Under the pieces are notes generated by a model. It did not search any database and was not told the origin of the DNA. It saw only the letters and a program-made list of their open reading frames with translations. Shown one piece after another: positions 9,743 to 37,116 of a stretch of DNA of 40,893 nucleotides. This stretch comes from a virus. Its lineage: Duplodnaviria; Caudoviricetes. The stretch spans positions 1 to 40,893 of IMG/VR virus record IMGVR_UViG_3300049009_000676; one strand, 5' to 3'. Position numbers and translations under genes: made by a program. The number at the start of each line of letters is the position of its first letter. Within the stretch, counting starts at the first letter, position 1.

Positions 9743-10125
9743 AATTTAGCATAGAACAGGCCCAGTCAAATCCGGTCAGCGAATTTGCCACCTGTCTTTT
9801 GCACAGCGTGACTGGCGCTCATATGCTGCACCTGGCCACGTACAGCCTTGCGGAACATAAGGCTCTAGAGGCGTTCTATGCGGCCATAGGAGGCCTCATC
9901 GATTCGTTCGTAGAGGCTTACCAGGGAAAGTACGCCAACCGCGTCTCGTATGTTGCAGGATTTGATGTTCCGTCCAAGCCCAGCGAGTACATACTTTATT
10001 TGAAAGACGAAGTCGCGGCTCTGCGCGTGGCCAAAGGTTTTCCTCAAGACTCCGAGCTTCAGAACATCACAGACGAGATTGCTTCTTTAATTGATGGAAC
10101 CCTTTATCAGCTAACCCTGTCATGA
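9739..10125 (+). CDS. Ferritin/Dps-like four-helix protein (DUF5856-like)
   Basis: H..HL.T.S.AEHKAL..FY...ID.FVEAYQGKY and ELQNITDEI pattern. Confidence 0.65.
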   Translation: MKFSIEQAQSNPVSEFATCLLHSVTGAHMLHLATYSLAEHKALEAFYAAIGGLIDSFVEAYQGKYANRVSYVAGFDVPSKPSEYILYLKDEVAALRVAKGFPQDSELQNITDEIASLIDGTLYQLTLS

Positions 10126-10349
10126 CTCAACATACGACAATACAAAATACAAGCGACCTGCTGAGTTTTCTGGTCAATCAATCTGAAGCGCGAAAAGATT
10201 GGTTTGGCTTTATGCAGCAGCGCATGACCGCAATTACGCTCGCCCATGAAATTGCAGCCAATCACGCTCACCACATGACGCCACCCCAAGTTGTAGCTTA
10301 TGCGATGGCTCTGAATAGCGAAATTTACAACAAGATCATCAAAGCATAA
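10122..10349 (+). CDS. Hypothetical protein
   Basis: ATGA overlap upstream; 1-nt gap to the next gene. Confidence 0.6.
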   Translation: MTQHTTIQNTSDLLSFLVNQSEARKDWFGFMQQRMTAITLAHEIAANHAHHMTPPQVVAYAMALNSEIYNKIIKA

Positions 10350-10350
10350 A

Positions 10351-10818
10351 ATGAATGTCAGCATAAAACTTGAAGGTGTTGGCAATGTCCAATCGATCTT
10401 TAGGCAATTGGCTGACGAAATTGGCGACAAAAAAGCCAACAGCAAAATTTTAGTTCCTGCAGTCCGAGAGGCCATGAAACCTGTGCTGGCCAAAGCAAGA
10501 GCACAAGCACCCGTAGACACAGGCGGTCTTAGGCGCAGCCTGCAAGTTGAAGCTCGTCGTCCGACTCGCAAAGACAAAGGGTCAAAATACATTAGCAGCA
10601 CAGACACAGTCATATCTCTTGTAACCACAGCGCCAGGAAAGAAATTAGCCAAGATGGGCATAAACAGCGATGCTCGGGCAATAGCGCAAGAATTTGGAAC
10701 AGCCAGACATCCAGCGCACCCATATTTGCGCACAGCTTTAGAATCACAATCACAAAGCGTAATACAAAATCTTTCGCAAATATTAGCAAGACGAATTGAT
10801 CAATACAAAAAGGTGTAA
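10351..10818 (+). CDS. HK97 gp10-family neck/tail protein
   Basis: APVDTGGLRRS and QEFGTARHPAHPYLRTA motifs. Confidence 0.88.
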   Translation: MNVSIKLEGVGNVQSIFRQLADEIGDKKANSKILVPAVREAMKPVLAKARAQAPVDTGGLRRSLQVEARRPTRKDKGSKYISSTDTVISLVTTAPGKKLAKMGINSDARAIAQEFGTARHPAHPYLRTALESQSQSVIQNLSQILARRIDQYKKV

Positions 10819-10820
10819 AT

Positions 10821-11288
10821 ATGACAAGACTATCGAGCGCATTGGGGACTGGAGTAAAATTACGCATCAAACAATTTGTCCTTGGAGGGCACACATTTAA
10901 CGTGCGCATTCCTCTGGTATCAGAAAGCGATGCCATGCACAGCCGGATCATGAAACCGGACAGCGAAACGGTGAATAAAATTTACACAGATTTGACCAAA
11001 TCTTTAGATGAATTCAAATCTCTCGAAACTGAAGAGTTAGTTTTTACGGAAAATGATGTTGTTGTAGGTGGCCGTTCAATGCGAGAGGCTGCGACAAACA
11101 AAGCGATGATGGAGTTGCGGATTACAGAGATGGTTCGGCTGCTTCAAGCCGAAGATTCGGCCAACAGTCTGCACGATATTACTTATGCCGAAATTGAACA
11201 AGAATGGCCTTTAAATGTGCAGCGTGAATTGGTAGAAAAGATCGCTGAAGTAATCAGTCCTGTTTACAAGGAAGTACGGGGAAACTAA
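10821..11288 (+). CDS. Tail assembly chaperone (G)
   Basis: Upstream of the tape measure; ends in slippery G GGA AAC just before TAA. Confidence 0.8.
   Translation: MTRLSSALGTGVKLRIKQFVLGGHTFNVRIPLVSESDAMHSRIMKPDSETVNKIYTDLTKSLDEFKSLETEELVFTENDVVVGGRSMREAATNKAMMELRITEMVRLLQAEDSANSLHDITYAEIEQEWPLNVQRELVEKIAEVISPVYKEVRGN
11279..11285 (+). other. Programmed -1 ribosomal frameshift site GGGAAAC
   Basis: X XXY YYZ heptamer in the correct phase. The -1 frame reads GGG AAA CTA ATT GGC TCG TTG and stays open to 11644. Confidence 0.85.
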
Positions 11289-11644
11289 TTGGCTCGTTGA
11301 GGGAACAAGTCGCGGCGGCGATGATCTTCAACGGGCACACAACGGAATCAATTGCAGCGATTGACCAGATAACAATGTTAAATATTCAAGCGATGTATGC
11401 AGATGGAACAATTGGCAATCACGGCCTGTTGGAGCAGCTTGCGACGCTTACTGCTGGAGTGTTTAATTACATGCGACAACCCAATTCGGCAGCATACAAA
11501 TTATCCAATACGCTTGGTGCAGCACACGACTATCTTTATCCGCCAGCAAGCACAGAACAGCGCAAAGAGCAGACCAGCAACAGCTTGTTAGCGTTTATGT
11601 CGCAGGCTCCAGGATTCAGCAAAGGACTATTCGGTCATGGCTAA
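11279..11644 (+). CDS. Frameshifted C-terminal part of chaperone GT
   Basis: ORF 11297-11644 has only a TTG start and is the -1 frame of the upstream gene; overlaps the TMP start. Confidence 0.75.
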   Translation, partial: GKLIGSLREQVAAAMIFNGHTTESIAAIDQITMLNIQAMYADGTIGNHGLLEQLATLTAGVFNYMRQPNSAAYKLSNTLGAAHDYLYPPASTEQRKEQTSNSLLAFMSQAPGFSKGLFGHG

Positions 11645-13853
11645 CATTGCCCGGCTTGGTGTAGCACTTGGACTTAACAGCGCTGAATTTGTCAGCGGCA
11701 TAGAAGCTGCTGGAAAAAAATTAGAGCAGTTTGCCAATAAAGCAACAGGTTATGCAAAGGTCGCGGCGACAGCGTTTGTTGCCTTAACAACTGCAGCAAT
11801 GGCGTATGCAGACGAAATTGCAGACGTAGCCAAAAGCAATGATGTTGCAATTGACTCAGTCATCAAACTGCAGAACGCATTGGCCAACTCCGGCGGATCA
11901 GCAGAAAATGCAGGAAAACTCCTTTCTTCATTTACAAAATTCGTAGACGACGCGGCTGGCGGTTCTTTTGAAGCGCAGCAAAAATTACAAAAGATGGGGC
12001 TGTCTTTAAAAGACATTGGCAGCCTATCAACTGATTCGTTATTTCAAAAAACAATCCAAGGGCTCGCCGCCATTGAAGACCCATTGACCAGAAATGCCAG
12101 GGCGATGGATGCATTTGGCAAAGCAGCAAAAGGTGTTGATTGGTTAGGTGTTTCCGAAGGAATGGCAAGTGGTGCAGCGGCAAGCAAAAAACAAGCTGAA
12201 GCTGTGCAAGCTGCCGCAGATTCGTTTGATATGCTAAAGCAGAGTGCCAGAGATTTTAATTTAATGCTTGCGGAATCCCTTGGGCCATCACTAAAGCTGA
12301 CCCTTGAATATATAAAAGATTTGAAAGGCGAGTCTAATTTTCTGGGTGATGCTTTTAAAGTTGTATTTCAAACAATTGTTGTTCTTGGTTCAGATCTGCA
12401 GTTTATTTTCAAAGGCATTTCAGACGAAATATCGCATACCATTGAAAATATTAAGTTGTTGACAACAGCGCAATTTGAAGCTGCGCGTGCTGCCAATGAA
12501 GCATATGAAAAAAGAAGAAAGCAAGCACGGGAAGATTTAGATCTGTTTCAAGCTCGCATCATGGGCACAGATGCAGGATACCAAGGCAAAGGGTTTGCTG
12601 ATTCAAGAACTGTTGCCCCAGATGATACAACCAAGCGCAAAGTAACGACACCAAAAGAAGTTTTGGCAAAAGATTTTGAATTGAAAAAATTAAGACTTGA
12701 AAATGAATTTTCTATAACAAATAAATTTTTGAGCGAACAGCAAAACCTTGAACTGGAATATAAAAGAAAAACGGCAGAAGCAGATTTAGAAAGAAAACAC
12801 AAAGACGCCGCTGAAGAAAATAAATTTGCGGCAAAAAATTGGACTATCTTGCAAGAAAAATTATTTGGAATTGAGCAAGAGTATAAAGGAAAGAAAAAAT
12901 CATTGGCCATAAAAAATATGGCAGAAGAAGCAAAGCAAGAAATAGCGTTGCAAGAAGAAAGTGCAAAAGCATATTCCGAGCTTAATGCGTTTTATTCGCA
13001 AGGCAATACTGCAGTCAGAGAAAAGCAGGATTTAGAAGCCACAGCACTAGATCGAGCGCAGCAAATGTTTAAGCTGGAACAAAAAGGACGTTTTCTAAAA
13101 GCAGAAGAATTGCAAGAACAGAAAGAAATATTGCAGCAAACATGGAAATATATTGATGCTGTAGAAACAATAAATGCAATGCAAAATCTTGATAGAGAAA
13201 GCAGAAGGGAAGCTCTCGCACGAGAAGACAAACTAAATGAAAAAGCATTGCAGAATATAGTTGAGCGCGGAAGAATATTAAAATCTCAAACAGCAGGCGG
13301 CTTTTATGAAGGTTTTTTGGCAAGGCTAGATGCGGTAAACAGAGACATGGAAACCAGTTTTGAAACTGGCGGCAAAGCATTTGATTCTTTGATGGGCAGT
13401 ATGTCCAAAGCATTGGATGAGTTTGTAACCACAGGCAAATTAAATTTTGGAGATTTTGCCAAGTCTATTATTAAAGACATGTTGGCGATACAACTCCGAG
13501 CAGCCGCACTAAATCTATTTGCTCCGTTAGCAAAATTCATATTTCCGTCTGTAAGTCTCGCACAGCCTTTCTCCGGGCCAAGAGCAGATGGCGGTCCAGT
13601 TGAAAGCAACAGCTCCTATTTGGTGGGCGAACGTGGGCCAGAGCTGTTTGTGCCTCGCGGCGCAGGGGCGATCGTTCCGAATCACACTATCGGCAGCAGC
13701 CAGCAAGCACCAACAATCAATTACAATGGCCCCTACATTGCCAGCATGAGCGCAATTGATACGCAGTCGGGCCTCCAATTTTTGGCTAAGAACAAGCAGT
13801 CTGTCTGGTCTGTGTATCAATCGGCCAATCGCAGTATCCCAATGTCACGTTAA
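11637..13853 (+). CDS. Tape measure protein
   Basis: IARLGVALGLNSAEF N-terminus, long helical body, lambda-like FVTTGKLNFGDFAKSII and RADGGPV...YLVGERGPELFVP. About 110 nm tail by the ~0.15 nm/aa rule of thumb. Confidence 0.93.
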   Translation: MANIARLGVALGLNSAEFVSGIEAAGKKLEQFANKATGYAKVAATAFVALTTAAMAYADEIADVAKSNDVAIDSVIKLQNALANSGGSAENAGKLLSSFTKFVDDAAGGSFEAQQKLQKMGLSLKDIGSLSTDSLFQKTIQGLAAIEDPLTRNARAMDAFGKAAKGVDWLGVSEGMASGAAASKKQAEAVQAAADSFDMLKQSARDFNLMLAESLGPSLKLTLEYIKDLKGESNFLGDAFKVVFQTIVVLGSDLQFIFKGISDEISHTIENIKLLTTAQFEAARAANEAYEKRRKQAREDLDLFQARIMGTDAGYQGKGFADSRTVAPDDTTKRKVTTPKEVLAKDFELKKLRLENEFSITNKFLSEQQNLELEYKRKTAEADLERKHKDAAEENKFAAKNWTILQEKLFGIEQEYKGKKKSLAIKNMAEEAKQEIALQEESAKAYSELNAFYSQGNTAVREKQDLEATALDRAQQMFKLEQKGRFLKAEELQEQKEILQQTWKYIDAVETINAMQNLDRESRREALAREDKLNEKALQNIVERGRILKSQTAGGFYEGFLARLDAVNRDMETSFETGGKAFDSLMGSMSKALDEFVTTGKLNFGDFAKSIIKDMLAIQLRAAALNLFAPLAKFIFPSVSLAQPFSGPRADGGPVESNSSYLVGERGPELFVPRGAGAIVPNHTIGSSQQAPTINYNGPYIASMSAIDTQSGLQFLAKNKQSVWSVYQSANRSIPMSR

Positions 13854-13862
13854 GGAATCACA

Positions 13863-15977
13863 ATGTCAGTTCCAAATACATTCGCAAGCGCAACCAGTTC
13901 CATTCCTCTTGCCAATCTGGACGCAAACTTTGCGTACTATGACGCAGCATTCTCGATCTCAGGCACGGCAGTCACGTTTGCAGGCAGCATCACGCTGACC
14001 ACAGGCACAGCCAACGGAGTGCCGTACCTCAACGCCAGCAAGGTGCTGACCAGTGGCGCTGTGTTGACATTTGATGGCACCACTCTTTTAAGCACAAAGT
14101 TTGCTGGGGCATTGAACGGCACCGTCGGGGCTACATTGCCTACTACGGGGGCATTTACTACGCTGAGTATGACGGGTACGGCGGCAACTAACACTACAGC
14201 TTTATCTGCAACAGGGACTACCACTGGGTTTAATCGCGGAAGGATTTTTAATACTGGCGGCGATTTAAGGTTTGGAATTGACAGTAGTGTGGGCGCTGAA
14301 GCGGTAGCTGGCTCGGCGGCATATTCGTCGTTTATTGGATCGTTTACAAATACTCCGTTTTGCCTTGTTTCAAATAGTGCAATAGTTGGCGCAGTCTCCT
14401 CCACCGGCTTAGCAGTCACCGGGACGCTGAGTGCTACGGGTACAGCGACATTCAACAAAGGGGCCACAGCAATTGACTTGACCCCTGTTAGCACTGCGGC
14501 AAGCGCCAGAACAAATATTTCGTGGACAGCTAAAAACGCAAGTAGCGCAAATCGGACTTCTTACATCGGTTCAAACATCTTTCTTGCTGACGGGTCTACG
14601 GAAATATCGGGTGAATTTGCTGTCAATTTAATGATTGACGGGGTAACAAAAACTGCGCTTACCTCCACCGGACTAGCAGTCACCGGGACGCTGAGTGCTA
14701 CGGGGGCAACTACTCTTTCAGCACAACTTACAGCATCGACGGGTGATGGAACGTATCCAATAATAAGCAAAGACACTAGAGCGTTTAGTGTGGGTGTTAC
14801 TGGCCCACAGTTAGGTTTTTTTGGGCTTGACTCAACATCAACAAATAATTCACTTGGTGCAATTCGCGCACTTGCACAATCAAGCCAAAACGGAACATTA
14901 GAGGCAAGAGTTTTATCAAGCGGTTCCATAGCAACCATAGGTACATTCTCCTCCACCGGACTAGCAGTCACCGGGACGCTGAGTGCGACGAGTAATATTT
15001 ATACTTCTGCTCGTTATTTTGCACAGCGTCAGTCAGGTTCTTTAAGTTTTGCTATTGGTGGCTACTCAGACGGGTCGGCGGCAACTGTGCTGACAGGTGC
15101 AATAGGCGATATTGTTGCTTTCGGTAATGTTGGTGGCGATGGGGTTATCTTTGCCAATAGCAATACAGAGCGTATGCGCCTAACCGATACGGGTCTGGGT
15201 ATTGGGACAAGTTCGCCTGCCTACAGATTAGATGTTGGTGCTACCAGCGATGTAAACATTTCAATGAATAACTCTACGAGTGTTACATCGGGGAATCGTG
15301 GCACTTTGTCAATGTATAACTCGGCTGGCTCAACTGTCGGGTTTATTCGTTTTGGTGCGGTTACAGATAACTCAGGAACCGACATTCAATTTGGAGTAAG
15401 ACCTGCTGGTGGTTCTTTAAACAGTACCGCAATGAAACTCGACTCCAGCGGTAACTTGCTGGTGGGAAATACTGTTGCATCATCTGCTACAGATGCAGGA
15501 TTTAAATTTTTGAAAAGTCTAGAAGGTGCAGGCAACGATAGAACTGCTATTGTTTTTGACTCAAGTTCAAATTCACAAATCCCTTTTACTTTATATTCAA
15601 CAGGCGCAGGTGCGTATCGTTTTTATGTCGGCGCTGGAGGAACTATTTACGCTACCTCAATCGTCATCACAGCTATTTCTGACCAGCGCCTGAAAGAAAA
15701 TGTGCGGGATATTGATACTGGCTTGTCATCAGTCATGGCGCTCAAGCCACGCCGATTTGATTGGAAAGAAGGCAAAGGTCAGGACAAGAAAAATGTGGCT
15801 GGTTTTATTGCCCAAGAGTTTGAAGATGTATTTCCTGAGTGTGTTGGAGTATCAAGGGCTGGTGAAGATGGTGTTGAGTACAAAAACATCAACCATGAAA
15901 CGCTGATCCCCACTTTGGTCAAAGCCATCCAAGAACTCAAAGCAGAATTTGATGCTTACAAAGCATCGCACCCCTAA
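13863..15977 (+). CDS. Tail fibre with C-terminal intramolecular chaperone (peptidase S74)
   Basis: Gly/Ser/Thr-rich; ERMRLTDTGLGIGTSSP fibre motif; SDQRLKENVRDI...LKPRRFDWK...GFIAQE...LVKAIQEL chaperone. Confidence 0.9.
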   Translation: MSVPNTFASATSSIPLANLDANFAYYDAAFSISGTAVTFAGSITLTTGTANGVPYLNASKVLTSGAVLTFDGTTLLSTKFAGALNGTVGATLPTTGAFTTLSMTGTAATNTTALSATGTTTGFNRGRIFNTGGDLRFGIDSSVGAEAVAGSAAYSSFIGSFTNTPFCLVSNSAIVGAVSSTGLAVTGTLSATGTATFNKGATAIDLTPVSTAASARTNISWTAKNASSANRTSYIGSNIFLADGSTEISGEFAVNLMIDGVTKTALTSTGLAVTGTLSATGATTLSAQLTASTGDGTYPIISKDTRAFSVGVTGPQLGFFGLDSTSTNNSLGAIRALAQSSQNGTLEARVLSSGSIATIGTFSSTGLAVTGTLSATSNIYTSARYFAQRQSGSLSFAIGGYSDGSAATVLTGAIGDIVAFGNVGGDGVIFANSNTERMRLTDTGLGIGTSSPAYRLDVGATSDVNISMNNSTSVTSGNRGTLSMYNSAGSTVGFIRFGAVTDNSGTDIQFGVRPAGGSLNSTAMKLDSSGNLLVGNTVASSATDAGFKFLKSLEGAGNDRTAIVFDSSSNSQIPFTLYSTGAGAYRFYVGAGGTIYATSIVITAISDQRLKENVRDIDTGLSSVMALKPRRFDWKEGKGQDKKNVAGFIAQEFEDVFPECVGVSRAGEDGVEYKNINHETLIPTLVKAIQELKAEFDAYKASHP
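14396..14990 (+). repeat. Three ~43-nt near-identical direct repeats inside the fibre gene
   Basis: CCTCCACCGG(C/A)(T/C)TAGCAGTCACCGGGACGCTGAGTGC at 14398, 14662 and 14950; spacings 264 and 288 nt; each encodes STGLAVTGTLSAT. Confidence 0.95.
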
Positions 15978-15992
15978 ACTTGAAAGCAAACC

Positions 15993-16310
15993 ATGACCCA
16001 AATAACTTGGACAGTCACCGCTATGGACTGCTATCCCACCGTGGGCAGCGAAACTGATGTTGTTTTTACCGTGCATTGGACTTGCAGCGGCACTGACGGC
16101 ACCTACACCAGCAGCGTCTACTCAACCTGCTCTGTGCCTACGCCTACCGGCACCTTTACACCCTACGCCGATCTGACGCAAGGGCAAGTGCTTGGCTGGG
16201 TCTGGGCCAACGGCGTGGACAAAGACGCCACAGAAGCCGCTGTGCAGCAGCAGATTGACAACCAGATCAACCCACCTGTAGTAACCCCACCCCTGCCTTG
16301 GGCCGCATAA
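15993..16310 (+). CDS. Fibre-associated hypothetical protein
   Basis: VVFTVHW, FTPYADLT...VLGWV and PPLPW pattern typical of small proteins following fibres. Confidence 0.75.
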   Translation: MTQITWTVTAMDCYPTVGSETDVVFTVHWTCSGTDGTYTSSVYSTCSVPTPTGTFTPYADLTQGQVLGWVWANGVDKDATEAAVQQQIDNQINPPVVTPPLPWAA

Positions 16311-27123: not shown

Positions 27124-27545
27124 GAGAAAGGATCCAGTTGTTCAAACAAGGTTGCCCAGCTGTCTGCGGCACATTGGCGCTGCAGATCTTTGTGGCTCAT
27201 AAAATTTATCGAGTCGGCCAGAGCACCCGGTATTGCGAACACATCTGCTGTGCCCACCCCAACAACAACAAAGCTCTTGCCGCTGTGCGCGTACCATTCA
27301 TAGTGCCAGTTGCGCTGCGCCACACTCAGCCCTTTTGTCGCGCCAAGGACTCGGGAAACCTCGCGCGCAGGGTATGCGTCCACAGACTTGAGCTCAAGCC
27401 AAACAACCCTGCCCGATGCAATTGCGAGCACATCCGGCATCCCAACCCCAGCCAAATTCTCCACACGCTCCAGCCGCAGCTTTGGGGCCAGCGCGGCAGC
27501 GTGCTTACGCATCCTGTCCCACAGGCGTTGTTCAGTTTTACGCAT
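27120..27545 (-). CDS. PD-(D/E)xK nuclease (VRR-NUC / resolvase-like)
   Basis: E..LW, RVEN..GVGMPDV, WLELK, Q..W motifs. Confidence 0.85.
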   Translation of the reverse strand: MRKTEQRLWDRMRKHAAALAPKLRLERVENLAGVGMPDVLAIASGRVVWLELKSVDAYPAREVSRVLGATKGLSVAQRNWHYEWYAHSGKSFVVVGVGTADVFAIPGALADSINFMSHKDLQRQCAADSWATLFEQLDPFS

Positions 27546-30336
27546 CGAAATTCACCTCCCGATTCAAGCACTTGATTCGCTCGACCTTGACCATTGCGAA
27601 GTTGGGGATGCGCTTGCCGCGAACCAGAATCACATCATCCTCTTCGAGCCGCTCCGCCGCCAATCGGCCCATTGGCTCGAAGGCAAACCGATCAAAGCGA
27701 AGCGTGATGGGCACGCCTGTGTCGTCGGTAATGAACACATCCGAAAAAAGCGTTTTGCCTGTGATGATTCTCCCGTCTCGCTGCGCCACACGGCGTGATT
27801 CATTTTCATCGCGCAGCTGCTTGCGCAACACCTTGCCAATCAGAAGCGTGTCGCCTCGGGAAGGCAAATCGTTCAGCATCGACACGTAGCTGCCAGCACG
27901 ACATCCGTGCAGCTCTGGCGTTGCATAGATGTCGGCATACAGCTTGCTAAGCGGGTACAGCTCTTGAAACCGAATGGAAGCCTTTGCAATCTTTTCTTTG
28001 TCCAGCTTGCCTTCCGCGCGAGCGCGAACAGCAGCGCTGGCCTTTGCGGGCCCATACCCTTCCAAGTTCATAAAGCCGCCGATCAGCCGCCCGTCCACAA
28101 CGGCCCAATCCACGTCGCTCACCTCGACGTCAAACGCCGTGTACTCAATGCCCTCCGAGTGCATGTCGCGGAGCAGCTCGAATGCTTGGTATTCATCCTT
28201 CGCGTTGCGCAAACACGCGGCGGCATACGCCAACCCGTGGTACGTCTTCATCCACGCGCACCAGTAGCTAATAATGCCGTAGCTGGTGGTGTGGCTCGCG
28301 TTCATGCCCCACGCGCCGAAGCTGCAAATCTCTGCCCAGATAATCCGCGCCGTGTCCTCCGTCAAGCCGCGTTGCTTCGCTCCCTCGACAAACTGTTCGC
28401 CGCGTCGGTCGAAGTATTCTTTGCCCTTGCGTCCGCTCATCGCCTTGCGAACCTCCGACACCAGCTCCCAGCTGAATTTGCCCAGCTCAAAACATATGCG
28501 CATGACTTGCTCTTGGTAAAGCACGACGCCCATTGTTTGTCCGAGGTATTCGGCCATGGATGGGTGCCTGTATGCGATCTCTTCGCGGCCAGCGGCCCTT
28601 GCGATGTAATGCTGCGAAGCGCCGCCGCCCAGCGGCCCCGGTCGAGCCAGCGCCGTAACGTGGTCGATCCGGCGAAACGAGTCGATGTTCACCTCCGACG
28701 CCACCATGCGCTGGGCCTGTCCCTCAAATTGAAAGATGCCGGCATACCGCCTTGAGTTGAACAGATCAAAAACGGCCTGATCATTGAGCTTCAGCGCATA
28801 TAGCTCATCCGATGTCACCACGCCTGCATCCTCGATCACGCCCAGCGTGCGAAGCCCCAAGGCGTCGATCTTAAGCAGCCCGATCGCTTCGGCATATGGC
28901 TTGTCGATCTGAGCAACACCCTCCGAGCCGACGGTGCAAAAGTCGCTGATCGGCTCATTACAAACAATCACACCTGCTGCGTGGACGCCTGTGTGAGATG
29001 CGTGATTTTCCAACTGAAACATCACTTCAGCTTCCGGGTGCGCGGCAATAAACTTGCGACCCGGCTCGGTCTGCTGCATGGTGTCTTCCAGCGAGTGGCC
29101 ATATCGCGCATCGCCCGAAGAGTATTCGACAAGCACATTAAGCACATCAAATTTCTCGCGATCGGGAATGCCCAGCTTCTCGGTGACGCGAGCAATCACG
29201 CTTCGGGCACGCAAGTTGTTGATGCTGCCGATTCGCGCGACTTTCTCCGGCCCGTATTTCTCAGACAAGTATGTAAAGCACTGTTCGCGCTTGGAGTCGC
29301 TGAAGTCGATGTCGATGTCTGGCAAGTCGTTGCGGGTCAGGTCAATGAACCGCTCGAACAGCAACTCATGCACAAGTGGATCGACCTCGGTGATGCGCAA
29401 CAAGTAGCAAACGAGCGAACCGGCGGACGAGCCGCGACCCGGCCCGACCAGCATGCGTTGCTTCGCCCAAGCGATCAAGTCCGCCACAATCAAAAAGTAG
29501 CTCTCAAATTCCTTCTTGGCAATCATCGCCAGCTCGCGCTCCATCCGATCCTCATACTCCGAATCCCACACATCAATGTGTCCAAGGGCAATGCGCGTGG
29601 CTTTCCCGGCCAAAACCAGTTGGCGCAGGTCGCCTGGGAAGTTGATCAGCGGCGCTTGGGGCAGCGTGCTGGCGCATCGCTCGGCGATCTCGTGCACGTT
29701 GTTGGTGGCACGCTTGAACTGAGAAGCAGTCAACATCGGCAGCCATGCACGCAACTCTTGCAGCGTCAGCAGGTGCTGCGGCGTGACACGCTCCTTGCCT
29801 GAAATGGCCATAAAGGCGTGGTAGTCGTCTCGGGTTGGGTAGGCGTTGTCGCTGGTGATGACCAGTGGTTTCTTGGTGCGCTTGTGCAGCTCCAGCGCAG
29901 CGCGTTGTTGGAGTGGGCTGGCAGGGTTGACGTCGATAAAGTCAAAACAGTCTGGATCCGTCAGCGCGGCTCCGGCAAACCGGATGATGCCTTTGGACTC
30001 GCGGAACAGCGCGTGCAGATCGGCCTCGGGTTGCCGGGCGGCGGTGCTGAAGTTGTAGAACAGGCGCGTGTCCTCGGCCAGCGCCCATGCCACCGGCTTG
30101 CGCCCATCCTCGCGCGGCAGCACCAGCTCCGTGCCGAACAGCGGCTTGATGCCAATTTTGTTCAGCTGCTTGAGCCAAGTCGCGTGGCCCCAAGTCCCAC
30201 CGTCCACAATAGCCGCAGCGCCACACCCTAAACCATGCAGGGCGGTCGCAACCGATGGGACTGGGCCGAACCCCTGCCGGAACGAAAACTCCGTCCTTAC
30301 ACGGAGCTGGGGGAATGTTGTCAGACCACTTGCCAT
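27538..30336 (-). CDS. dnaE: DNA polymerase III alpha-like (family C) polymerase
   Basis: GPGRGSSAGSLVCYLL.IT.VDP...LLFERF, catalytic PDIDIDF, HAAGVI, KIDALGL, GIFQFE, RPGP, YQEQVM, C-terminal OB fold. Confidence 0.96.
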   Translation of the reverse strand: MASGLTTFPQLRVRTEFSFRQGFGPVPSVATALHGLGCGAAAIVDGGTWGHATWLKQLNKIGIKPLFGTELVLPREDGRKPVAWALAEDTRLFYNFSTAARQPEADLHALFRESKGIIRFAGAALTDPDCFDFIDVNPASPLQQRAALELHKRTKKPLVITSDNAYPTRDDYHAFMAISGKERVTPQHLLTLQELRAWLPMLTASQFKRATNNVHEIAERCASTLPQAPLINFPGDLRQLVLAGKATRIALGHIDVWDSEYEDRMERELAMIAKKEFESYFLIVADLIAWAKQRMLVGPGRGSSAGSLVCYLLRITEVDPLVHELLFERFIDLTRNDLPDIDIDFSDSKREQCFTYLSEKYGPEKVARIGSINNLRARSVIARVTEKLGIPDREKFDVLNVLVEYSSGDARYGHSLEDTMQQTEPGRKFIAAHPEAEVMFQLENHASHTGVHAAGVIVCNEPISDFCTVGSEGVAQIDKPYAEAIGLLKIDALGLRTLGVIEDAGVVTSDELYALKLNDQAVFDLFNSRRYAGIFQFEGQAQRMVASEVNIDSFRRIDHVTALARPGPLGGGASQHYIARAAGREEIAYRHPSMAEYLGQTMGVVLYQEQVMRICFELGKFSWELVSEVRKAMSGRKGKEYFDRRGEQFVEGAKQRGLTEDTARIIWAEICSFGAWGMNASHTTSYGIISYWCAWMKTYHGLAYAAACLRNAKDEYQAFELLRDMHSEGIEYTAFDVEVSDVDWAVVDGRLIGGFMNLEGYGPAKASAAVRARAEGKLDKEKIAKASIRFQELYPLSKLYADIYATPELHGCRAGSYVSMLNDLPSRGDTLLIGKVLRKQLRDENESRRVAQRDGRIITGKTLFSDVFITDDTGVPITLRFDRFAFEPMGRLAAERLEEDDVILVRGKRIPNFAMVKVERIKCLNREVNFDA

Positions 30337-30857
30337 AGCAGCTCCTTCTGGAAAATCTCCACGAGAGCCATCACATCGTCCAGTGCCCTGTGCGTCTGCG
30401 CCAGCGGCTTGCCCATCACCGACTCATACAGCTCGGTCAACTTGGGGTTGCGACCCCATTCGTCCTTGTACAGCCCCACGGTGCAGATCTCACGCTTGGG
30501 CCATGGGAAGTCAAACACATCCAGCCGCGCCAGCTCTCCACGCAGGATTGCCCGGTCAAAGGGCAGGTTGTGCGCCACGACGCAGGTGGCTCGCTCAAAC
30601 ATCATCCGCATCGCTGGGAGCACAGCCGCAAAAGAGCTTGCGCCCTGCAGCTCTGCGTCGGTGATGCCGGTGATCTTGATGATGACGGGGTCGAGCGGCA
30701 CGCCTGGATCGATCAACACATTCCAAGTGTCCACCACCTCGCCATTTTTCGGGTTCAGCAGCGCAGCTCCAAACTCGATCATGCGCGGCTGCTTGCGCAC
30801 CTCTGCTTGCGGGTGCAGGGTCAGCCCTGTTGTTTCGGTGTCGTATACGAGGATCAT
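30321..30857 (-). CDS. DEDDh 3'-5' exonuclease (DnaQ/epsilon-like)
   Basis: Start moved to ATG 30857; YDTETTG, AHNLPFD, HRALDD. Confidence 0.93.
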   Translation of the reverse strand: MILVYDTETTGLTLHPQAEVRKQPRMIEFGAALLNPKNGEVVDTWNVLIDPGVPLDPVIIKITGITDAELQGASSFAAVLPAMRMMFERATCVVAHNLPFDRAILRGELARLDVFDFPWPKREICTVGLYKDEWGRNPKLTELYESVMGKPLAQTHRALDDVMALVEIFQKELLWQVV

Positions 30858-31321
30858 GCGGCCTCGCGGCGAACGATGAATTTGAGGTCGATGCCGAGGA
30901 TGGCGCGGGTGTCGAATATGACATATTTGTACCAACGCTTGCCCGCGATCACCGGGTTGGTGTGCGACAACGTGGCGACCTCTTGCGCAATCGCAATCTT
31001 TTCTTCAGCAAAGAACCACCGCCACCCAACAAGCTCTTCTTCCGTCACGTGCATGCCCAAGTGTGACGCGCTGGTGCCGTACCGCTCCATCCAGTTCGGC
31101 GAGGACGTGTAATGCAACACCTCCAGCTCCAGCGCCTTGTCGCCGGTGGCTTGGTAGTTGAAGGCCAAGTCAGCGCCATTGCTGCCGCCAACACCCCACA
31201 CCTTGCCGGTCGCAACAACGTGATCCTTGGCCCAATCGGTCAGCCCAATCTTGGCAAACAGCCGCATGGCGCGCTCTGGGTCATTGGGGACGATGGCAAT
31301 TTGTTCGATTTTGAATTTCAT
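30854..31321 (-). CDS. VOC/glyoxalase-fold protein (methylmalonyl-CoA epimerase-like)
   Basis: IEQIAIV, ELEVL, SHLGMHV and Y..FDTR...G..LKFI paired beta-alpha-beta-beta-beta pattern. Confidence 0.75.
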   Translation of the reverse strand: MKFKIEQIAIVPNDPERAMRLFAKIGLTDWAKDHVVATGKVWGVGGSNGADLAFNYQATGDKALELEVLHYTSSPNWMERYGTSASHLGMHVTEEELVGWRWFFAEEKIAIAQEVATLSHTNPVIAGKRWYKYVIFDTRAILGIDLKFIVRREAA

Positions 31322-31322
31322 A

Positions 31323-32003
31323 TTAAGCTCCGTAAGGAATGATGCAACCAGAAAGAAAGATGTGACGCTCTTTTGAGCTCAACAAAAACGCGATAAATTC
31401 AGCCAACACGCTCGGCTCCGTCTCTGCGCCAGCCAGCAGGGCATTGAGCTGGTACTGTGCGGCGAATTCCGGCGTCCAACCGCGATGCTTCACAACCTGC
31501 ATCTCGATATCCTTGCTCATGCCCGTGCCGCGCAGCTTGTTGGGGCTAACGCCAAACACCGTGATGCCGTGCGCCCGACTCAGCTCCCGCGCCAGTTGCA
31601 GCGTCATGATGTGCGCCGCGCCCTTAGACGCGTTGTACGCCAGCGATGTGGTCATCGGCATGTGCGACGCATTGGACACGATGTTCACGACCGCGCCCTT
31701 GGACGCCTTGAGTCGCGGCAATGCCCACTGGGTCATCTTGAAGATGCCCTTGGCGTTAATTTCCATGGTGTCGTCCCAGTCCTTGTCTGTGACGTTCTCT
31801 AACCAGTTAGTGATGTTTATGCCGGCGCAGTTGATCAGCACATCCACCTCTTCTGGAGGGTTGCCCCAAGTGCCTTGTGGATCGCGCACATCGCAACCTG
31901 CCTTGAGATCGAAAGAAATCACGTCATGTTGCGCCATGCTCAGCTGAGTCACCAGTGCTTTCCCAAGTCCCGATGAGCTGCCGGTAACAATAATTTTGCT
32001 CAT
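31323..32003 (-). CDS. Short-chain dehydrogenase/reductase
   Basis: Start ATG 32003; TGSSSGLG, LINCAG, VNIVS, catalytic YNASK, VSP. Confidence 0.93.
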   Translation of the reverse strand: MSKIIVTGSSSGLGKALVTQLSMAQHDVISFDLKAGCDVRDPQGTWGNPPEEVDVLINCAGINITNWLENVTDKDWDDTMEINAKGIFKMTQWALPRLKASKGAVVNIVSNASHMPMTTSLAYNASKGAAHIMTLQLARELSRAHGITVFGVSPNKLRGTGMSKDIEMQVVKHRGWTPEFAAQYQLNALLAGAETEPSVLAEFIAFLLSSKERHIFLSGCIIPYGA

Positions 32004-32785
32004 TTTGCGTTCTCCGTATTTAACAAACAAGCCTCGATCATTGCGGAATAAACTGCGTCGTCGTGGATGGAATCGAGGTGCTTCAACCCGCTTATTGCAA
32101 ACCGACTCAGCTTAACTAGTTTCAACTCAAAAAGATGCCATTGCGGCGAAAAAAGAATCTCCGGCGGCACGCCTTCCGGGAACAACACCTCGCACAGCTT
32201 CGGCACCATTTTGTAGTTGTCCTTGTAAGTGCCGGAACGTTCCAGGAACGTCGCCGCCATCGCACCCAGCACCTCGCCAGCGTTAATCGCCTTCACCGGC
32301 GGCGTGTAGGCGCAGGCGTCGTGAATGGCAAGCACATGCGCTAGGATGCCGTGGTCCTGATACATCTGCACGATGTCAGCTCGGTCATCATAAGCGCAAA
32401 CGATGTCTTTCAGCGAAACGTCATAATCGGCAAGATGCTTAAGCTGTTCCCTCTTCAACTCGACCGATGGCCGGTTGTCGCCCACATTGCGCATGATCAG
32501 GAGTGGATTTTCTACGCCCAAGTGATCTCTGATCCACTCTCGGGTCTGCTGACGCACGTTGCTTCGGCCAACCGTATGGGGGCGTGCAGTCATGAAAATT
32601 GGCGTGTGGCCTTCCCCCAAAATCATGTCCGAATAAATTTCGTAGTTGCCTGCGCGATCATTGCTGACGTCGCGGTGGTACTCGGCGTAGCGTTTGTCGG
32701 GGTGCGTCTCGCTCCAGTTGATCAGCGGGATGCGCTCCCGGTCATCGGCGAGGCAGTTGTCAAGGTCAAAGATCACGTATTTCAT
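32000..32785 (-). CDS. HAD phosphatase (PNKP-phosphatase-like) fused to a helical DUF6378-like domain
   Basis: FDLDNCL, TARP, K and YDDR (HAD motifs I-IV); C-terminal ER...Y..NY...KLSRF.....HLDSIHD..VY. Confidence 0.75.
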   Translation of the reverse strand: MKYVIFDLDNCLADDRERIPLINWSETHPDKRYAEYHRDVSNDRAGNYEIYSDMILGEGHTPIFMTARPHTVGRSNVRQQTREWIRDHLGVENPLLIMRNVGDNRPSVELKREQLKHLADYDVSLKDIVCAYDDRADIVQMYQDHGILAHVLAIHDACAYTPPVKAINAGEVLGAMAATFLERSGTYKDNYKMVPKLCEVLFPEGVPPEILFSPQWHLFELKLVKLSRFAISGLKHLDSIHDDAVYSAMIEACLLNTENAK

Positions 32786-33144
32786 TTGGATGTTCTTTCT
32801 AAGATTCGTTGTCGATTGATGTTCATTGCAGCAGCGTCCGGCTCCCAGTCAGCCCACCACGCAGAGGCCACAGCCGGCAATGGCACGCTGTCATACTTCG
32901 GGCTGTAGCCGCGCCGCAGCATTTCCTCACGCAGCTCATGAAACCTGCGGCGGCAGTACCCGAGCCGCTGGTAGAAAAACTTCACATGCCCAGTGCCCAG
33001 TGTGTAAATTGCGGGTGCCACTACCGTTCTGCGCGCATCGTAGGCCTTGCACGCGAGGGCGAACACGCGTGGCAGCTCCCGGTACTCGGCCACCAAATGC
33101 TGCCGAGAAAGCTCGGCAACAGGGACGCAGTTGATGCGGGTCAC
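32782..33144 (-). CDS. denV: Pyrimidine-dimer DNA glycosylase (T4 endonuclease V-like)
   Basis: MTRIN...EL..QHL.AEYRELPRVF and LGTGHVKFFY closely match T4 DenV, with catalytic Thr2 and Glu23 retained. Confidence 0.92.
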   Translation of the reverse strand: MTRINCVPVAELSRQHLVAEYRELPRVFALACKAYDARRTVVAPAIYTLGTGHVKFFYQRLGYCRRRFHELREEMLRRGYSPKYDSVPLPAVASAWWADWEPDAAAMNINRQRILERTSK

Positions 33145-33863
33145 TTTGCAGCCTTGCGCATCTGGTCCACGATCTTCAGCAGCTGCCCTTTCTTGAGCAA
33201 GTCGCCACCGAACTCCTCCTTGGCGAACTGCTCAATCTCGTCGAACGCATCACGCTTGGCCGGGAACAGGAACTGCTCAGCCCACGGATGCACCGCCAGC
33301 ACTGCGTCGGCCATGGCGTTGACCACCTGCTGGTACTCGCCCTGCGTGCGACCTCCGGTGCGGCTCTTGCAAAGCTCGCTGAAGGTGCGCAGGTTGAATT
33401 TGCAGACGATGTTGGTGGCGATGTTGGTGGGCAGGATGCCGCGAGCGTCCTCGGGAGCGACGCCGGACTTGATCAGCGTGGCGTAGCTGTTGCGGATGTA
33501 GCGGTTGGTGTTTGCGATGATGCTCATCGACACGTTGTCAGCTTTGTTGCGCTCGGTGTGCACGTAGTCGTACTCGCCCATGTTGAGGACGCGCATGGTC
33601 TGCTGGGCGAAGCTGGCGTTGCGGGTGCGGACTTGCTGATGAGTGTAGGCGCGGCTCACACCCTCGACCAAGAACACATAGTCCACAAACTCCCAGCTGC
33701 TCGGGATGGTGTTGGCCATGTAGGCCAGTTCCTCCTCGATGCGGCTCTGGGGCCATTCCATAATCTTGTCCAGCAAACCGGGCGACATCGTCAGCCGGGT
33801 GGACTTGGTGAACACGAGTAGCTGCGCCGCATGGGGCGTGTAACTGATAAGGGTGACTTTCAT
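33141..33863 (-). CDS. thyX: ThyX-fold flavin-dependent thymidylate synthase-like protein with altered signature
   Basis: S.WEF..Y.F..EGVSR..THQ.VR.R..SF.Q, EDARGILP, NLR, Q.EY; the canonical RHRx7S reads RTRx7T. Confidence 0.8.
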   Translation of the reverse strand: MKVTLISYTPHAAQLLVFTKSTRLTMSPGLLDKIMEWPQSRIEEELAYMANTIPSSWEFVDYVFLVEGVSRAYTHQQVRTRNASFAQQTMRVLNMGEYDYVHTERNKADNVSMSIIANTNRYIRNSYATLIKSGVAPEDARGILPTNIATNIVCKFNLRTFSELCKSRTGGRTQGEYQQVVNAMADAVLAVHPWAEQFLFPAKRDAFDEIEQFAKEEFGGDLLKKGQLLKIVDQMRKAAK

Positions 33864-33926
33864 GGCTCTTTCTTTCTAAGGTTAAGTGGCTCCGAATCCC
33901 CGGAGCCGAGGGAAATTATCGCCTGA

Positions 33927-34844
33927 TTATCCGATGCTTCGCTTCACGTCATACGGCTGTGAATTCATCAGACGCTTGATCACGTGGATGTCCTGCGCCA
34001 CGTCGTCCAGCAGGATGTTACGCCAAGTGGCAAACCGACCAAGCGAGTAAATGTTGTGCTGCTGCGTGAGCCCAAACAGCAGTCGCTTGCGGTCAGCGTC
34101 GGCGATGGGCACGATCTTGCCGTACTTCTGGTCCACGGTCTCGATCACCTGCGACACTTCAGCCGCGAAAGCACGCTCAATCAGCACCAGCGCACGTGGC
34201 AACCACTCTTTCGCGGCAACGTCTCCGAGCATGGCCTCGATGATGAGGGCGCTGCCGGTGATGCTGGCTCGGTACATTGGCGTCTCTTCGTCGGGGAAGT
34301 ACACCGTCTGGAACACATCCGCGCCAATCACCCTGCACCGCGCCACCACGATCCCTGCGCGCTCGAATGTCAACTCCGGGTGGATGCCTAACATCTGAAG
34401 CGCAACCGGCAATGGGGCGGTGCTGATGATGCGAGAGCGCATGTTGGCTAGGTCGGCGCTGGTGTTCCAGAACGTGCGCTGGTGCGCGGCCTCCACCAAC
34501 TGTTCGTAGAACGTGTCCGGAGCAACATAACGGTCCACGGGGTCCAGGCTCCAAATGCTCCGGTCACCCGCCAGCCGCCCAGCGACTTTCTTGGCGTACT
34601 GGTTGGCGACCCGGATGTTGGGCTGCACGAACCGGCCCTCGCTCCAGATGCCTTTGTGCACGCGCACCTTGCGGAATTCGATGCCTGTGAGGTTGGCCAC
34701 AGCGTCGCTCCGGAACCGCAGCAGCGCACGGTGCATGGCGCGTGGGGCTGGCTGGGCTTCTAGGACGCTGGCGGTGGGCCAAGCATGGGCTGCGATGAGC
34801 CCAGCCAGCCCAGCCCCAACAATAATGGGCTGAGCAGCTGGCAT
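33927..34844 (-). CDS. FAD-dependent oxidoreductase (UDP-galactopyranose mutase-like fold)
   Basis: Start ATG 34844; IIVGAGLAGL.AA dinucleotide-binding motif, IISTAPL, C-terminal LGRFATWR..LLDDV. Confidence 0.75.
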   Translation of the reverse strand: MPAAQPIIVGAGLAGLIAAHAWPTASVLEAQPAPRAMHRALLRFRSDAVANLTGIEFRKVRVHKGIWSEGRFVQPNIRVANQYAKKVAGRLAGDRSIWSLDPVDRYVAPDTFYEQLVEAAHQRTFWNTSADLANMRSRIISTAPLPVALQMLGIHPELTFERAGIVVARCRVIGADVFQTVYFPDEETPMYRASITGSALIIEAMLGDVAAKEWLPRALVLIERAFAAEVSQVIETVDQKYGKIVPIADADRKRLLFGLTQQHNIYSLGRFATWRNILLDDVAQDIHVIKRLMNSQPYDVKRSIG

Positions 34845-34845
34845 G

Positions 34846-35487
34846 TTACAACACCTCCAGGTGTTTCTTCTCAACCAGTTTCTGGATGTAGCCCCGAGTG
34901 GGCTCGCCCATCTCGGCCTCCAGCGTTGCCAGGGTCATGGTGGCATCCTGCGCTTCCTGCACCAGCTTGAGCACTGCGGCACGTTTGCTGCCGGCTTGGA
35001 TCTTGCTCGTCCCGGCGAAGGTTGCCTTCACCACCATCTCTTTGTTGCGCGGCTTGCTGGGCTCAGTTTTGGCCTTTGGCGCCTTCTTGATGCGGGCAGG
35101 ATCGTTGGCCTCGGCGCTCTTGGTTGCGACCCAAAGGCTGTAAGCCAGCGTGCCCGGCTTGAAGGGGTTTTCGCCATTATCTGGGGCAACCGTACCCTCG
35201 TCGGATTTGCTGGGCTCCTGCACAGGTTTAGCTGCCTCGGCAGCAGGTTCCTGCGCAGCCGCCAGCTCTTCCTTGGTCATGGCCGTTGCGTCGGAGCCTT
35301 TCGGCACACCCAGATGCCCAGCAGCGTCCTCAGCCGCCATCAACGCCATGTCCACGCGACGCTCGGCGATTGCGCGGCTGGAAAACCGCTCGACGGCATT
35401 GCCGGTCAGGGCGTTGTAGGTGGCCACCAGATCGGCGGTGCTCGCGGCAGAGACGTCTGCGCGGTTGCGGATGATGTTTGTTGTCAT
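34846..35487 (-). CDS. Early hypothetical protein, possible C-terminal winged helix
   Basis: Start ATG 35487 after AGAAAGAAA; acidic linker and basic C-terminal domain. Confidence 0.7.
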   Translation of the reverse strand: MTTNIIRNRADVSAASTADLVATYNALTGNAVERFSSRAIAERRVDMALMAAEDAAGHLGVPKGSDATAMTKEELAAAQEPAAEAAKPVQEPSKSDEGTVAPDNGENPFKPGTLAYSLWVATKSAEANDPARIKKAPKAKTEPSKPRNKEMVVKATFAGTSKIQAGSKRAAVLKLVQEAQDATMTLATLEAEMGEPTRGYIQKLVEKKHLEVL

Positions 35488-35504
35488 GATTTTCTTTCTG
35501 AAGT

Positions 35505-35597
35505 TCAAATGTTGAGGAAGATGGCACAGGCGAGGGCAACACCAATGACTATGGCCAACACATAGTCACCGATGATTTCGAGGCGAGAGGGTTTCAT
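35505..35597 (-). CDS. 30-aa single-TM peptide
   Basis: MKPSRLEIIGDYVLAIVIGVALACAIFLNI, with AGAAAGGA SD 5 nt upstream. Confidence 0.65.
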   Translation of the reverse strand: MKPSRLEIIGDYVLAIVIGVALACAIFLNI

Positions 35598-35680
35598 AAT
35601 TTCCTTTCTGGTAGGCAACTTGCCTGAGCGAATTTTGCCTGAAGAAAAGCAGAAAACGCTCAGGTGCTGAAAATATATTT

Positions 35681-36489: not shown

Positions 36490-37116
36490 TTACGCTGCGA
36501 CGGTGGTGAATTTGTAAGGGCCAAATTCTTTTGCGCCTTCAGCCTTCAGAGCCATGCGGAAGGCGATGTGCTTGCCCATGGGCAGACCCAGGCTGGAGAA
36601 GGCATTTGCGACGCTGCGGTAGGTGCGGCCAACACCGGCTGCATCAACCACTTGCACCTGGGTGCGCTGGGCGCGAGCCATCGCAACACTGGTGTCGGTC
36701 CAGCTCTTGGCGATTGCGGCGCTGCGGGTGGAGCTGTTGCCGACTTTGCGGAGGAGCTTGCCGAAGCCAGCGCCGCAGCCCATGCACTCAAACTCGTGGG
36801 TGTCATGGCGCAGGGGCTTGCCGTTGACGTCGTCGCCGTGCTGGCTGACACCGTTGCGGAGGTCGATGCCGCAGGAAGGGCAATCAACACAACCGTGGTC
36901 AGCGAAGCCAGACACTTGGGCGCGACGGTTGGCTTCGTGCTTGGCTTTGTTTTCGACTTCGCGCGCAGCAACCAAGGACTCAAGCAGCGCAGCGCAACGA
37001 CGCAAGCCGGTGGCGCGGTCAGCAAACTTCTTGATCTGCTTGTCAGCAGCGACGTTGGCGTTGTAGAACAGGACGAGTTCTGCGGAGGTGAAGGTAGCGA
37101 AGGTAGCGTTGTTCAT
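36490..37116 (-). CDS. Early hypothetical protein with Zn ribbon
   Basis: AGAAAGGA SD; CPSC...CMGC; N-terminal domain shared with 34846-35487. Confidence 0.8.
   Translation of the reverse strand: MNNATFATFTSAELVLFYNANVAADKQIKKFADRATGLRRCAALLESLVAAREVENKAKHEANRRAQVSGFADHGCVDCPSCGIDLRNGVSQHGDDVNGKPLRHDTHEFECMGCGAGFGKLLRKVGNSSTRSAAIAKSWTDTSVAMARAQRTQVQVVDAAGVGRTYRSVANAFSSLGLPMGKHIAFRMALKAEGAKEFGPYKFTTVAA

Follow-up and report, generated by a model that had tools for sequence, protein, structure and literature searches.

A conserved ThyX-variant module with an exchangeable cassette beside a phage DNA polymerase, and its likely part in thymine hypermodification

The virus record IMGVR_UViG_3300049009_000676 (Duplodnaviria; Caudoviricetes), analysed here over its whole 40,893 bases and called the window, carries on its minus strand a run of eight genes that ends in a replicative DNA polymerase. 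In order, these encode a flavoprotein with the fold of UDP-galactopyranose mutase (UGM), a variant of the thymidylate synthase ThyX, a DenV-like pyrimidine-dimer glycosylase, a fusion of a HAD phosphatase with a helical domain, a short-chain dehydrogenase/reductase (SDR), a VOC/glyoxalase-fold protein, a DnaQ-like exonuclease and a DnaE polymerase. A first-pass annotation made from the sequence alone had given this order and had described the genes from thyX onward as overlapping or 1 nt apart, and both descriptions hold on measurement: after a spacing of 63 nt between the flavoprotein gene and thyX, the intergenic distances are -4, -4, -4, +1, -4 and -16 nt, that is, overlaps of 4-16 nt and a single 1-nt gap (start positions were assigned at 34844 for the flavoprotein, 32003 for the SDR and 30857 for DnaQ). 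The flavoprotein, ThyX, HAD, helical domain, DnaQ and DnaE form a core that is a replication-side module of Pbunavirus and its kin, and the best reading of the whole is that it works like phage thymine hypermodification with interchangeable tailoring cassettes.

The conserved core

The ThyX variant (33141-33863, minus strand) scores 105 bits against the Thy1 family (PF02511; cut-off 24.8, E 5e-30) and 87.6 bits against TIGR02170, just under the cut-off of 87.9. Judged by its active-site residues, it is not a canonical ThyX. It has the fold family and the FAD/dUMP arginines in common with the canonical enzyme (T. maritima TM0449), but RHRx7S has become RTRx7T (R79-T80-R81...T89), as the first-pass annotation had read it, and H53 and Y91 are lost. 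Aligned with the ThyX proteins of T. maritima, M. tuberculosis and C. glutamicum, the window segment M49-A-N-T-I53-P-S-S-W-E58 stands opposite MKHGHETPFEH of T. maritima and RTR opposite RHR, giving the changes H53 to I53, H79 to T80, S88 to T89 and Y91 to V92. A census of 85 non-identical homologues found His53, the RHR histidine His79 and Tyr91 in none of them (0/85 each), whereas the dUMP/FAD-binding arginines R79, R81, R91 and R168, equivalent to R78, R80, R90 and what we take to be R174 in T. maritima numbering, are Arg in 85/85, and the position of S88 is conservatively T or S in 84/85. The available part of one account has H53 stacking the folate pteridine and Y91 as the proposed acid, mutation of which makes flavin oxidation 1000-fold slower (PMC11940539), and the RHR motif and tyrosine lid of canonical ThyX are described in the accessible text of another (PMC6514825). 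The altered ThyX of the earlier annotation is thus borne out across a conserved cluster, its homologues having lost the folate-site residues; in a further departure from the canonical enzyme, a second flavoprotein accompanies the variant in every locus tested.

That flavoprotein (33927-34844, minus strand; 305 amino acids; PHROG 4828) is orthologous to gp65 of phage F8 and gp50 of phage XcP1, and its family, which comprises 1139 clusters at 50% identity and has nearest Atlas clusters that are 96-100% viral, conserves a GAGLAG motif, a C-terminal GRF motif and ten invariant Arg/Lys positions. The label UGM-like, given to it at first pass, stands by structure and not by sequence. UDP-galactopyranose mutase is the top fold match of the predicted model (pLDDT 92.7; Foldseek E 5.8e-11), and a second method agrees (VIA Z 21.4, rmsd 3.2, 288 aligned residues, 19% identity); the mutases 4dsg, 5hhf and 3hdq match over almost the entire chain, but are longer (363-510 amino acids) and show no significant sequence match. 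No GLF-type family match was found in Pfam or NCBIfam, and the flavoprotein profile met UGM in the PDB at a non-significant E of 0.54 over only 18 residues. PPO and amine oxidases come next, 3-5 Z units lower (Z 16-18.6, PPO 18.6), so the fold gives the class of the flavoprotein and not its reaction. UGM chemistry itself proceeds via a flavin-N5 sugar adduct (title of PDB 5hhf). Three relatives (L071, L073 and L090) have a flavoprotein open reading frame (ORF) with a long N-terminal extension. An alternative raised at first pass, a DprE1/DprE2-style oxidase and epimerase pair, finds no support in the fold searches: the DprE1-type oxidase fold is that of the vanillyl-alcohol-oxidase family, and the fold matches listed, all Rossmann-type flavoproteins, do not include it.

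The fusion gene (32000-32785, minus strand) joins an N-terminal HAD phosphatase domain (32298-32785; motif DLDNCL...DDR, HAD_PNKP E 4e-11), which most relatives encode as a separate gene, to a C-terminal DUF6378-like helical domain (32000-32297). Among 37 homologues of this domain, 32 match DUF6378 at E<=0.1, the best at 1.7e-5, but the copy in the window does not; K, R, D-S-x-x-D and Y are invariant. The domain is presumably linked through DUF6378 to the all-alpha NTP pyrophosphatases (MazG or Nmad1-like), a link that the fold search did not confirm, since it returned nothing clear (best Z 7.1, not a pyrophosphatase); it is regarded here as a putative gatekeeper of the nucleotide pool. Two replication genes close the run: DnaQ (30321-30857, minus strand), a DEDD 3'-5' exonuclease (RNase_T E 8e-25; PHROG 192), and the family C polymerase DnaE (27538-30336, minus strand; DNA_pol3_alpha E 2e-66; TIGR00594 above cut-off), which carries a PDIDID motif at residue 339.

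The distribution of these genes was surveyed by tblastn over 50,697 phage records (ThyX threshold E<=1e-15), of which 359 were matched by ThyX, 362 by the flavoprotein, 124 by the SDR and 55 by the VOC protein, the ThyX and flavoprotein matches lying mostly in Pseudomonas PB1-like phages. From IMG/VR, 22 loci with VOC and the best 80 of 123 with ThyX were taken; with L028 and L029 dropped as duplicates and L001, L003 and L004 added, 82 loci span ThyX to DnaQ. Of the ThyX loci, all 69 that extend 4 kb or more upstream hold the flavoprotein and all 62 that extend 6 kb or more downstream hold DnaE (redundant loci included, L003 left out), an association that is more than chance. SDR and VOC are both present in 57 of the 82 loci, a count inflated because part of the loci were VOC-seeded, and both missing from 23, with the SDR alone in 2. 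Of the genes whose co-conservation the first-pass annotation proposed to check, ThyX, flavoprotein and DnaE go together in these loci, but SDR and VOC are optional. The coupling to DnaE, in turn, is regular without being obligatory: Rhizobium phage RHph_TM40 has the core without a DnaE match, and an obligate link was accordingly rejected. DenV (32782-33144, minus strand; Pyr_excise E 5e-14), earlier listed in the run, is accessory only, being found in 20 of the 82 loci; the F8 and XcP1 regions did not yield it by tblastn at E 1e-4. At least three DenV-like kinds occur within or beside the module (window 32782-33144; L013-L015 and L058; L118:6249-6797), and such genes may conceivably have a role beyond UV repair.

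Among cultured phages, F8 has the flavoprotein (43% identical), a ThyX with the same rewired site (37%), the HAD-helical protein, DnaQ (38%) and DnaE (49%) in the same order (gp65-gp59-gp57-gp56-gp55), but lacks SDR, VOC and DenV and has a different helical subtype. XcP1 (Carpasinavirus) and Bas99 (Wifcevirus) carry all module genes of the window except DenV, again in the same order. They belong to a group with SDR and VOC that includes Wifcevirus Bas98-101, Serratia phages MTx and MyoSmar and Pantoea phage Kyle (SDR 50-55%, VOC 50-62% identical). These phages have genomes of 61-73 kb and virion genes other than those of the window (tested in XcP1), and the annotation of their module genes goes no further than hypothetical, FabG-like or thymidylate synthase; a nucleoside analysis of these phages was not found in the literature. 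Searches with the window's terminase, portal, capsid and tape measure came back empty for F8, for XcP1 over its first 60 kb and for PY059 over its first 40 kb, so the module is carried by more than one type of virion.

More distant versions occur in RHph_TM40, Vibrio phage PVA7 and the actinophages Giuseppe and RikSengupta. RHph_TM40 (207 kb; L116, 70489-77151) has flavoprotein, ThyX variant and HAD-helical protein, and TM30, its relative, is named among phages with a YerA41-like polymerase in the available part of PMC12686479. Giuseppe and RikSengupta (L117 and L118) have a distant parallel cluster of oxidoreductase, HAD, DnaE, GT2 glycosyltransferase and a ThyX that matches the profile (E 7e-31 and 3e-25) and likewise lacks the RHR histidine; that of RikSengupta includes SDR, VOC and helical domain. 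Their oxidoreductase resembles the flavoprotein weakly (HHalign probability 65%, E 6e-5; HMM E 0.015 and 0.29) and is likely its distant counterpart, and the two actinophages, both cultured SEA-PHAGES isolates, make candidates for modified DNA.

Within the window, the replication block stands on the minus strand, and the plus strand holds the small and large terminase, portal, protease, capsid, tape measure, tail and lysis genes together with a primase, a primase/helicase and an HNH gene. Two capsid-fold genes lie in tandem (4366-5838 and 5903-6949; Phage_capsid E 7e-31 and 8e-11). A PHROG 4730 paralogue pair lies upstream of the module (34846-35487 and 36490-37116), the first of the two ending 1 nt before the flavoprotein start. 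The G+C content is 39-49% over the tail region (10001-16000) against 55-62% in the replication block, a drop that suggests a mosaic genome. The assembly of the gene run is sound; a single contig from a public sequencing run covers 27400-35600, and contigs of a second study match 29384-32314 and 32381-35600, all with 0 differences, and either may derive from the source sample. Full-length matches to the stretch occur in one freshwater and one marine metagenome, either of which may be its source. The listed datasets that contain it include no RNA dataset, and promoter and terminator scans stayed at chance level (5 vs. 4.8 and 16 vs. 14.7).

The helical-SDR-VOC cassette

The classical SDR (31323-32003, minus strand; adh_short E 3e-33) has, by sequence, an intact catalytic set (TGxxxGxG, NCAG, S-YxxxK). 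It is 40-55% identical to copies in Lindbergviridae-type phages, its best PDB match is an EntA-type dehydrogenase, and PHROG classes it as moron/AMG. The VOC protein (30854-31321, minus strand) matches Glyoxalase_4 below cut-off (E 1e-4), as do 12 of 28 VOC sequences at E<=0.1; no PDB sequence match was found, and its Atlas structure resembles glyoxalase-family clusters (TM 0.75-0.80). Q7, E65, E67, H87 and K147 are invariant in the alignment of 28, and K147 stands where, from the ligand positions that we assume for this fold, the fourth metal ligand, a Glu, would be expected. At first pass these two enzymes and the flavoprotein had been joined in a redox trio; they do not form a single unit, because the flavoprotein is core while SDR and VOC are optional and move with the helical domain.

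This movement can be seen in close relatives of the window, in which a block of helical domain, SDR and VOC (30845-32298) is replaced. Relative L027 is 96-98% identical to the window in flavoprotein, ThyX, DenV and DnaQ but only 56% in the HAD-helical protein, and lacks SDR and VOC. Run X5 gave a contig of 40,381 bp that agrees to 96-97% on either flank, carries 321 other bases in place of 30845-32298 and so skips 1452 window bases at the cassette; L027 shows an equal replacement. The pattern extends to a tree set of 75 loci with helical domain, ThyX and DnaQ, reduced to 49 by removal of near-duplicates and joined by the window, in which 33 carry SDR and VOC and 17 do not (two SDR-only loci were left out). 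The SDR+VOC label changes only twice on the tree of the helical domain, a short domain with several weak nodes in its tree, against a mean of 14.4 and a minimum of 8 in 300 shuffles, whereas it changes 10 times on the tree of HAD (43 rows), 11 times on that of the flavoprotein (42 rows) and 13 times on those of ThyX and DnaQ. Helical residue E220 is found in 30 of the 33 loci with the pair and in 0 of the 17 without it, and the two SDR-only loci score as the helical type of loci without either gene. Held-out scoring of helical domains was right in three of the four labelled phages matched (Bas99, TM40 and 14-1), 14-1 being close to F8, which was in the training set. Helical domain, SDR and VOC thus move as one unit, an observation new here. 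Adjacency by itself might carry the three along, but a simple deletion of the two genes would leave behind a helical domain of the SDR+VOC type, and none of the 17 pairless loci keeps E220.

Other enzymes occupy the module in some loci that lack the pair. A NodU-type carbamoyltransferase lies inside it in five (L058, L059, L071, L073 and L104; L071:6221-7933) and is possibly another tailoring variant of the same base, and a small SAM methyltransferase lies inside it in four (L046, L058, L059 and L102; L102:9793-10290) and also in the module of mycobacteriophage Giuseppe (gp65; L117:8008-8538); RikSengupta, as noted, adds the GT2 glycosyltransferase. Cassette swaps together with alternative tailoring genes are what a modification pathway with exchangeable tailoring steps would be expected to show.

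Modified thymines of related phages

Relatives sharing the core do have a sugar-type modified thymidine. In the available text of Yee et al. (bioRxiv 2025.03.31.646159; PMC12191111), its mass is 362 Da in F8 and 390 Da in 14-1, and it replaces about a quarter of T, in TG context, the remaining T being canonical. In F8 the base was thus measured in virion DNA, whereas the window phage is known from its genes alone. The same text names no genes for the base; no literature assigning the Pbunavirus base genes or describing this cluster was found in searches whose coverage excluded most subscription journals, and the accessible parts of PMC8989533, PMC13326640 and PMC13307970 do not cover the cluster. 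In 50 more F8 ORFs that lack an assignment, Pfam recognised no modification enzyme, and most of these ORFs belong to no family at all. Over the 21 genes from gp48 to gp68, the HAD-helical protein gp57 is the least conserved of the named enzymes between F8 and 14-1 (84.6%), and the small ORFs gp58, gp60 and gp61 diverge further (78-83%); these four are candidates for the difference between 362 and 390 Da.

By computed mass, di-, tri- and tetrahydroxypentyl-deoxyuridine are 330, 346 and 362 Da, i.e., dT+88, +104 and +120, although an O-linked tetritol ether is also 362 Da. Linkers on dT of 88 Da in Carin-5 and 104 Da in YerA41 are given in the available parts of PMC12686479 and PMC13697223, and with F8 at +120 the series (+88 also being the SP-15 type) advances by one oxygen at a time. 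The dihydroxypentyl-uracil of phage SP-15 and the YerA41 and Carin-5 linkers are C5 polyol chains on uracil, as is the product proposed below, and SP-15 has an SDR, gp129, beside a Thy1-fold protein, gp130 (accessible text of PMC5977210). The likeness goes no further than enzyme class: gp129 is unmatched to the window SDR, and gp130 and YerA41 gp81 form a family of their own (25% identical to each other; HHalign probability below 1% to the window ThyX, 0.8% for the gp130 type). The SP-15 and YerA41 systems also use PolA and add further sugars, whereas the window has DnaE, and nothing recognised in it matches the SP-15 glycosyltransferase cluster. Orthology with SP-15 was rejected, the window proteins being unmatched in its 75-120 kb interval at E 0.5. 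Profiles of the flavoprotein and the helical domain, with F8 and XcP1 as positive controls, found nothing in the whole of SP-15 or YerA41, and that of ThyX gave a single weak match in SP-15 at 6061-6345, which is not gp130. The chemical resemblance to SP-15 drawn at first pass thus does not extend to orthologous enzymes, and since SP-15 and YerA41 arrive at +88 and +104 with a different ThyX-like family, convergence may explain the mass series. In SP-15 (gp127-gp130; L002:38730-41911), gp130 lies beside the SDR and a gene like nucleoside 2-deoxyribosyltransferases; gp81 lies at L107:38235-39398 in YerA41, and this separate, long, Thy1-derived family provides candidates for the +88 and +104 linkers.

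A palindrome test gave support for TG-context modification that is weak at most. In the window, 6-base palindromes containing TG are less depleted than others (observed/expected 0.82 vs. 0.47), a ratio of 1.73 with p=0.016, uncorrected over 7 contexts, one of which, AT, reached p=0.010; four-base palindromes showed no TG sparing. Across whole genomes or 34-66 kb portions, 12 carriers of the module had ratios of 0.91-2.58 and 9 controls 0.90-1.58 (p=0.021, or 0.056 without two close kin). Wifceviruses resist the tested restriction-modification systems except EcoP1_I, by a mechanism given as not known in the available part of PMC11990801.

A proposed pathway and its alternatives

A role of the core module in DNA modification is very probable. 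For the chemistry, building on the gene content, folds, rewired ThyX site, co-conservation and cassette swap observed directly, we infer a pre-replicative route, to which we give a probability of about one half, in which flavoprotein and ThyX variant make a polyol-uracil nucleotide that SDR and VOC tailor and the helical domain gates. The UGM-fold flavoprotein would activate or ring-open a sugar donor, and the ThyX variant would join the sugar-derived unit to C5 of dUMP in place of the folate-derived methylene, giving a polyhydroxypentyl-type dUMP, the fully hydroxylated nucleoside of which would be 362 Da, as measured in F8. HAD would strip the side-chain phosphate, and SDR and VOC would oxidise and then epimerise or deoxygenate the chain, so that the base of the window phage would differ from that of F8 (e.g., 346 or 330 Da). 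The helical domain would act on the finished or half-finished nucleotide, which would account for its changing with the cassette, and host kinases would form a triphosphate for DnaE and DnaQ to use alongside host-made dTTP. The product would be an analogue of thymidine whose uracil bears at C5 a polyol chain derived from a sugar; incorporated by the polymerase, it would block restriction enzymes. A bolder version, in which a folate-independent ThyX and its UGM-fold partner carbon-carbon bond a five-carbon sugar to C5 of dUMP and a swappable cassette strips or inverts hydroxyls to yield polyhydroxypentyl-uracils of 362, 346 and 330 Da across hundreds of phages, is more speculative, and we hold it to be doubtful.

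Several results weigh against the pre-replicative route. As the first-pass annotation had stated, no glycosyltransferase or dNMP kinase was recognised in scans of the window (21, 31 and 30 ORFs, in overlapping sets); dUTPase and dCMP deaminase were likewise not recognised there, and together with the absent kinase this tells against a nucleotide-pool pathway. SP-15 and YerA41 make their +88 and +104 linkers with the other ThyX-like family and with no flavoprotein of this kind detected. F8 and 14-1 are 97% identical in flavoprotein and 94% in ThyX though their bases differ, so these two enzymes do not alone fix the product; no gene is tied to the F8 base, and the enzyme chemistry is deduced. 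The helical domain adjoins the SDR gene, and linkage alone explains part of the tree signal; its scoring in RikSengupta was tied (79.9 vs. 82.0), with PVA7 and Giuseppe unmatched. The palindrome test gave p=0.20 in F8, a ratio of 0.91 in the carriers XcP1 and TM40 and 1.58 in the control phiKMV. Lastly, the F8 base lies in TG context and replaces about a quarter of T, which is suggestive of a step on DNA; the context is hard to explain by a pool route alone and leaves the pool substitution put forward at first pass only partly standing.

That context, and the one-quarter replacement in both F8 and 14-1, would be natural if the modification were post-replicative, the ThyX variant furnishing a reactive handle (5-hydroxymethyl-dUMP, for instance) and the UGM-fold protein, which is basic, O-linking a sugar or polyol onto TG sites in DNA, with SDR and VOC reshaping the donor beforehand. 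The ten invariant Arg/Lys positions of the flavoprotein, the carbamoyltransferase as alternative partner and the masses themselves (390 Da for a pentoside and 362 Da for a tetritol ether of 5-hydroxymethyl-deoxyuridine, 5hmdU) fit such a scheme, and post-replicative 5hmdU routes are established in the available part of PMC8989533. Against it, the unmodified three quarters in F8 and 14-1 are reported, in the text cited above, as canonical T rather than 5hmdU, the window and F8 scans brought up nothing recognisable as a 5hmdU DNA kinase or a glycosyltransferase, and a one-carbon product sits poorly with the lost folate-stacking His; we consider the scheme possible but rather unlikely. Plain dTMP supply by a two-flavoprotein thymidylate synthase, with HAD and helical domain cleaning the pool and the F8 base due to other, unrecognised genes, is less probable still. 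Although the TIGR02170 score falls only 0.3 bits short, the active-site arginines are kept, S88 is T or S in nearly all homologues and most of the 50 scanned F8 ORFs have no family, His53, His79 and Tyr91 are missing in all 85, and the cassette-linked change of the helical domain is left unexplained. Nor, to our knowledge, does dTMP synthesis involve a UGM fold, SDR, VOC, carbamoyltransferase or methyltransferase. SDR and VOC might also be unrelated passengers, for carbonyl detoxification or host metabolism, hitch-hiking with the helical gene of a core that does modify DNA. Their absence from 23 of 82 loci and from F8, the tendency of adjacent genes to recombine together and the PHROG class of the SDR would suit passengers, but the pair stays beside helical domain and polymerase in phages as far apart as those of proteobacteria and Microbacterium phage RikSengupta, pairless helical domains differ at specific columns (E220 in 30/33 with the pair vs. 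0/17 without) and both SDR-only loci have the pairless helical type, which makes this account very improbable.

Pbunaviruses rank with the most widely used therapeutic phages against P. aeruginosa, and carry a modified thymine to which the searchable literature assigns no genes; the way in which uracil acquires a five-carbon chain has stood as a question since the work on SP-15 in the 1970s. The module supplies candidate genes, a core enzyme set common to hundreds of cultured phages that likely places a sugar-derived chain on thymine, and it predicts that phages with the full cassette carry a base other than that of F8, Bas99 being a cultured example that grows on an E. coli K-12 derivative. 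A ThyX able to transfer several carbons would be a novelty in flavin chemistry, and if the bolder version is true, phages, therapeutic Pbunaviruses included, would have a second and simpler route to SP-15-type bases. The helical-SDR-VOC cassette, swapped out in close relatives, is predicted to alter the thymine chain.

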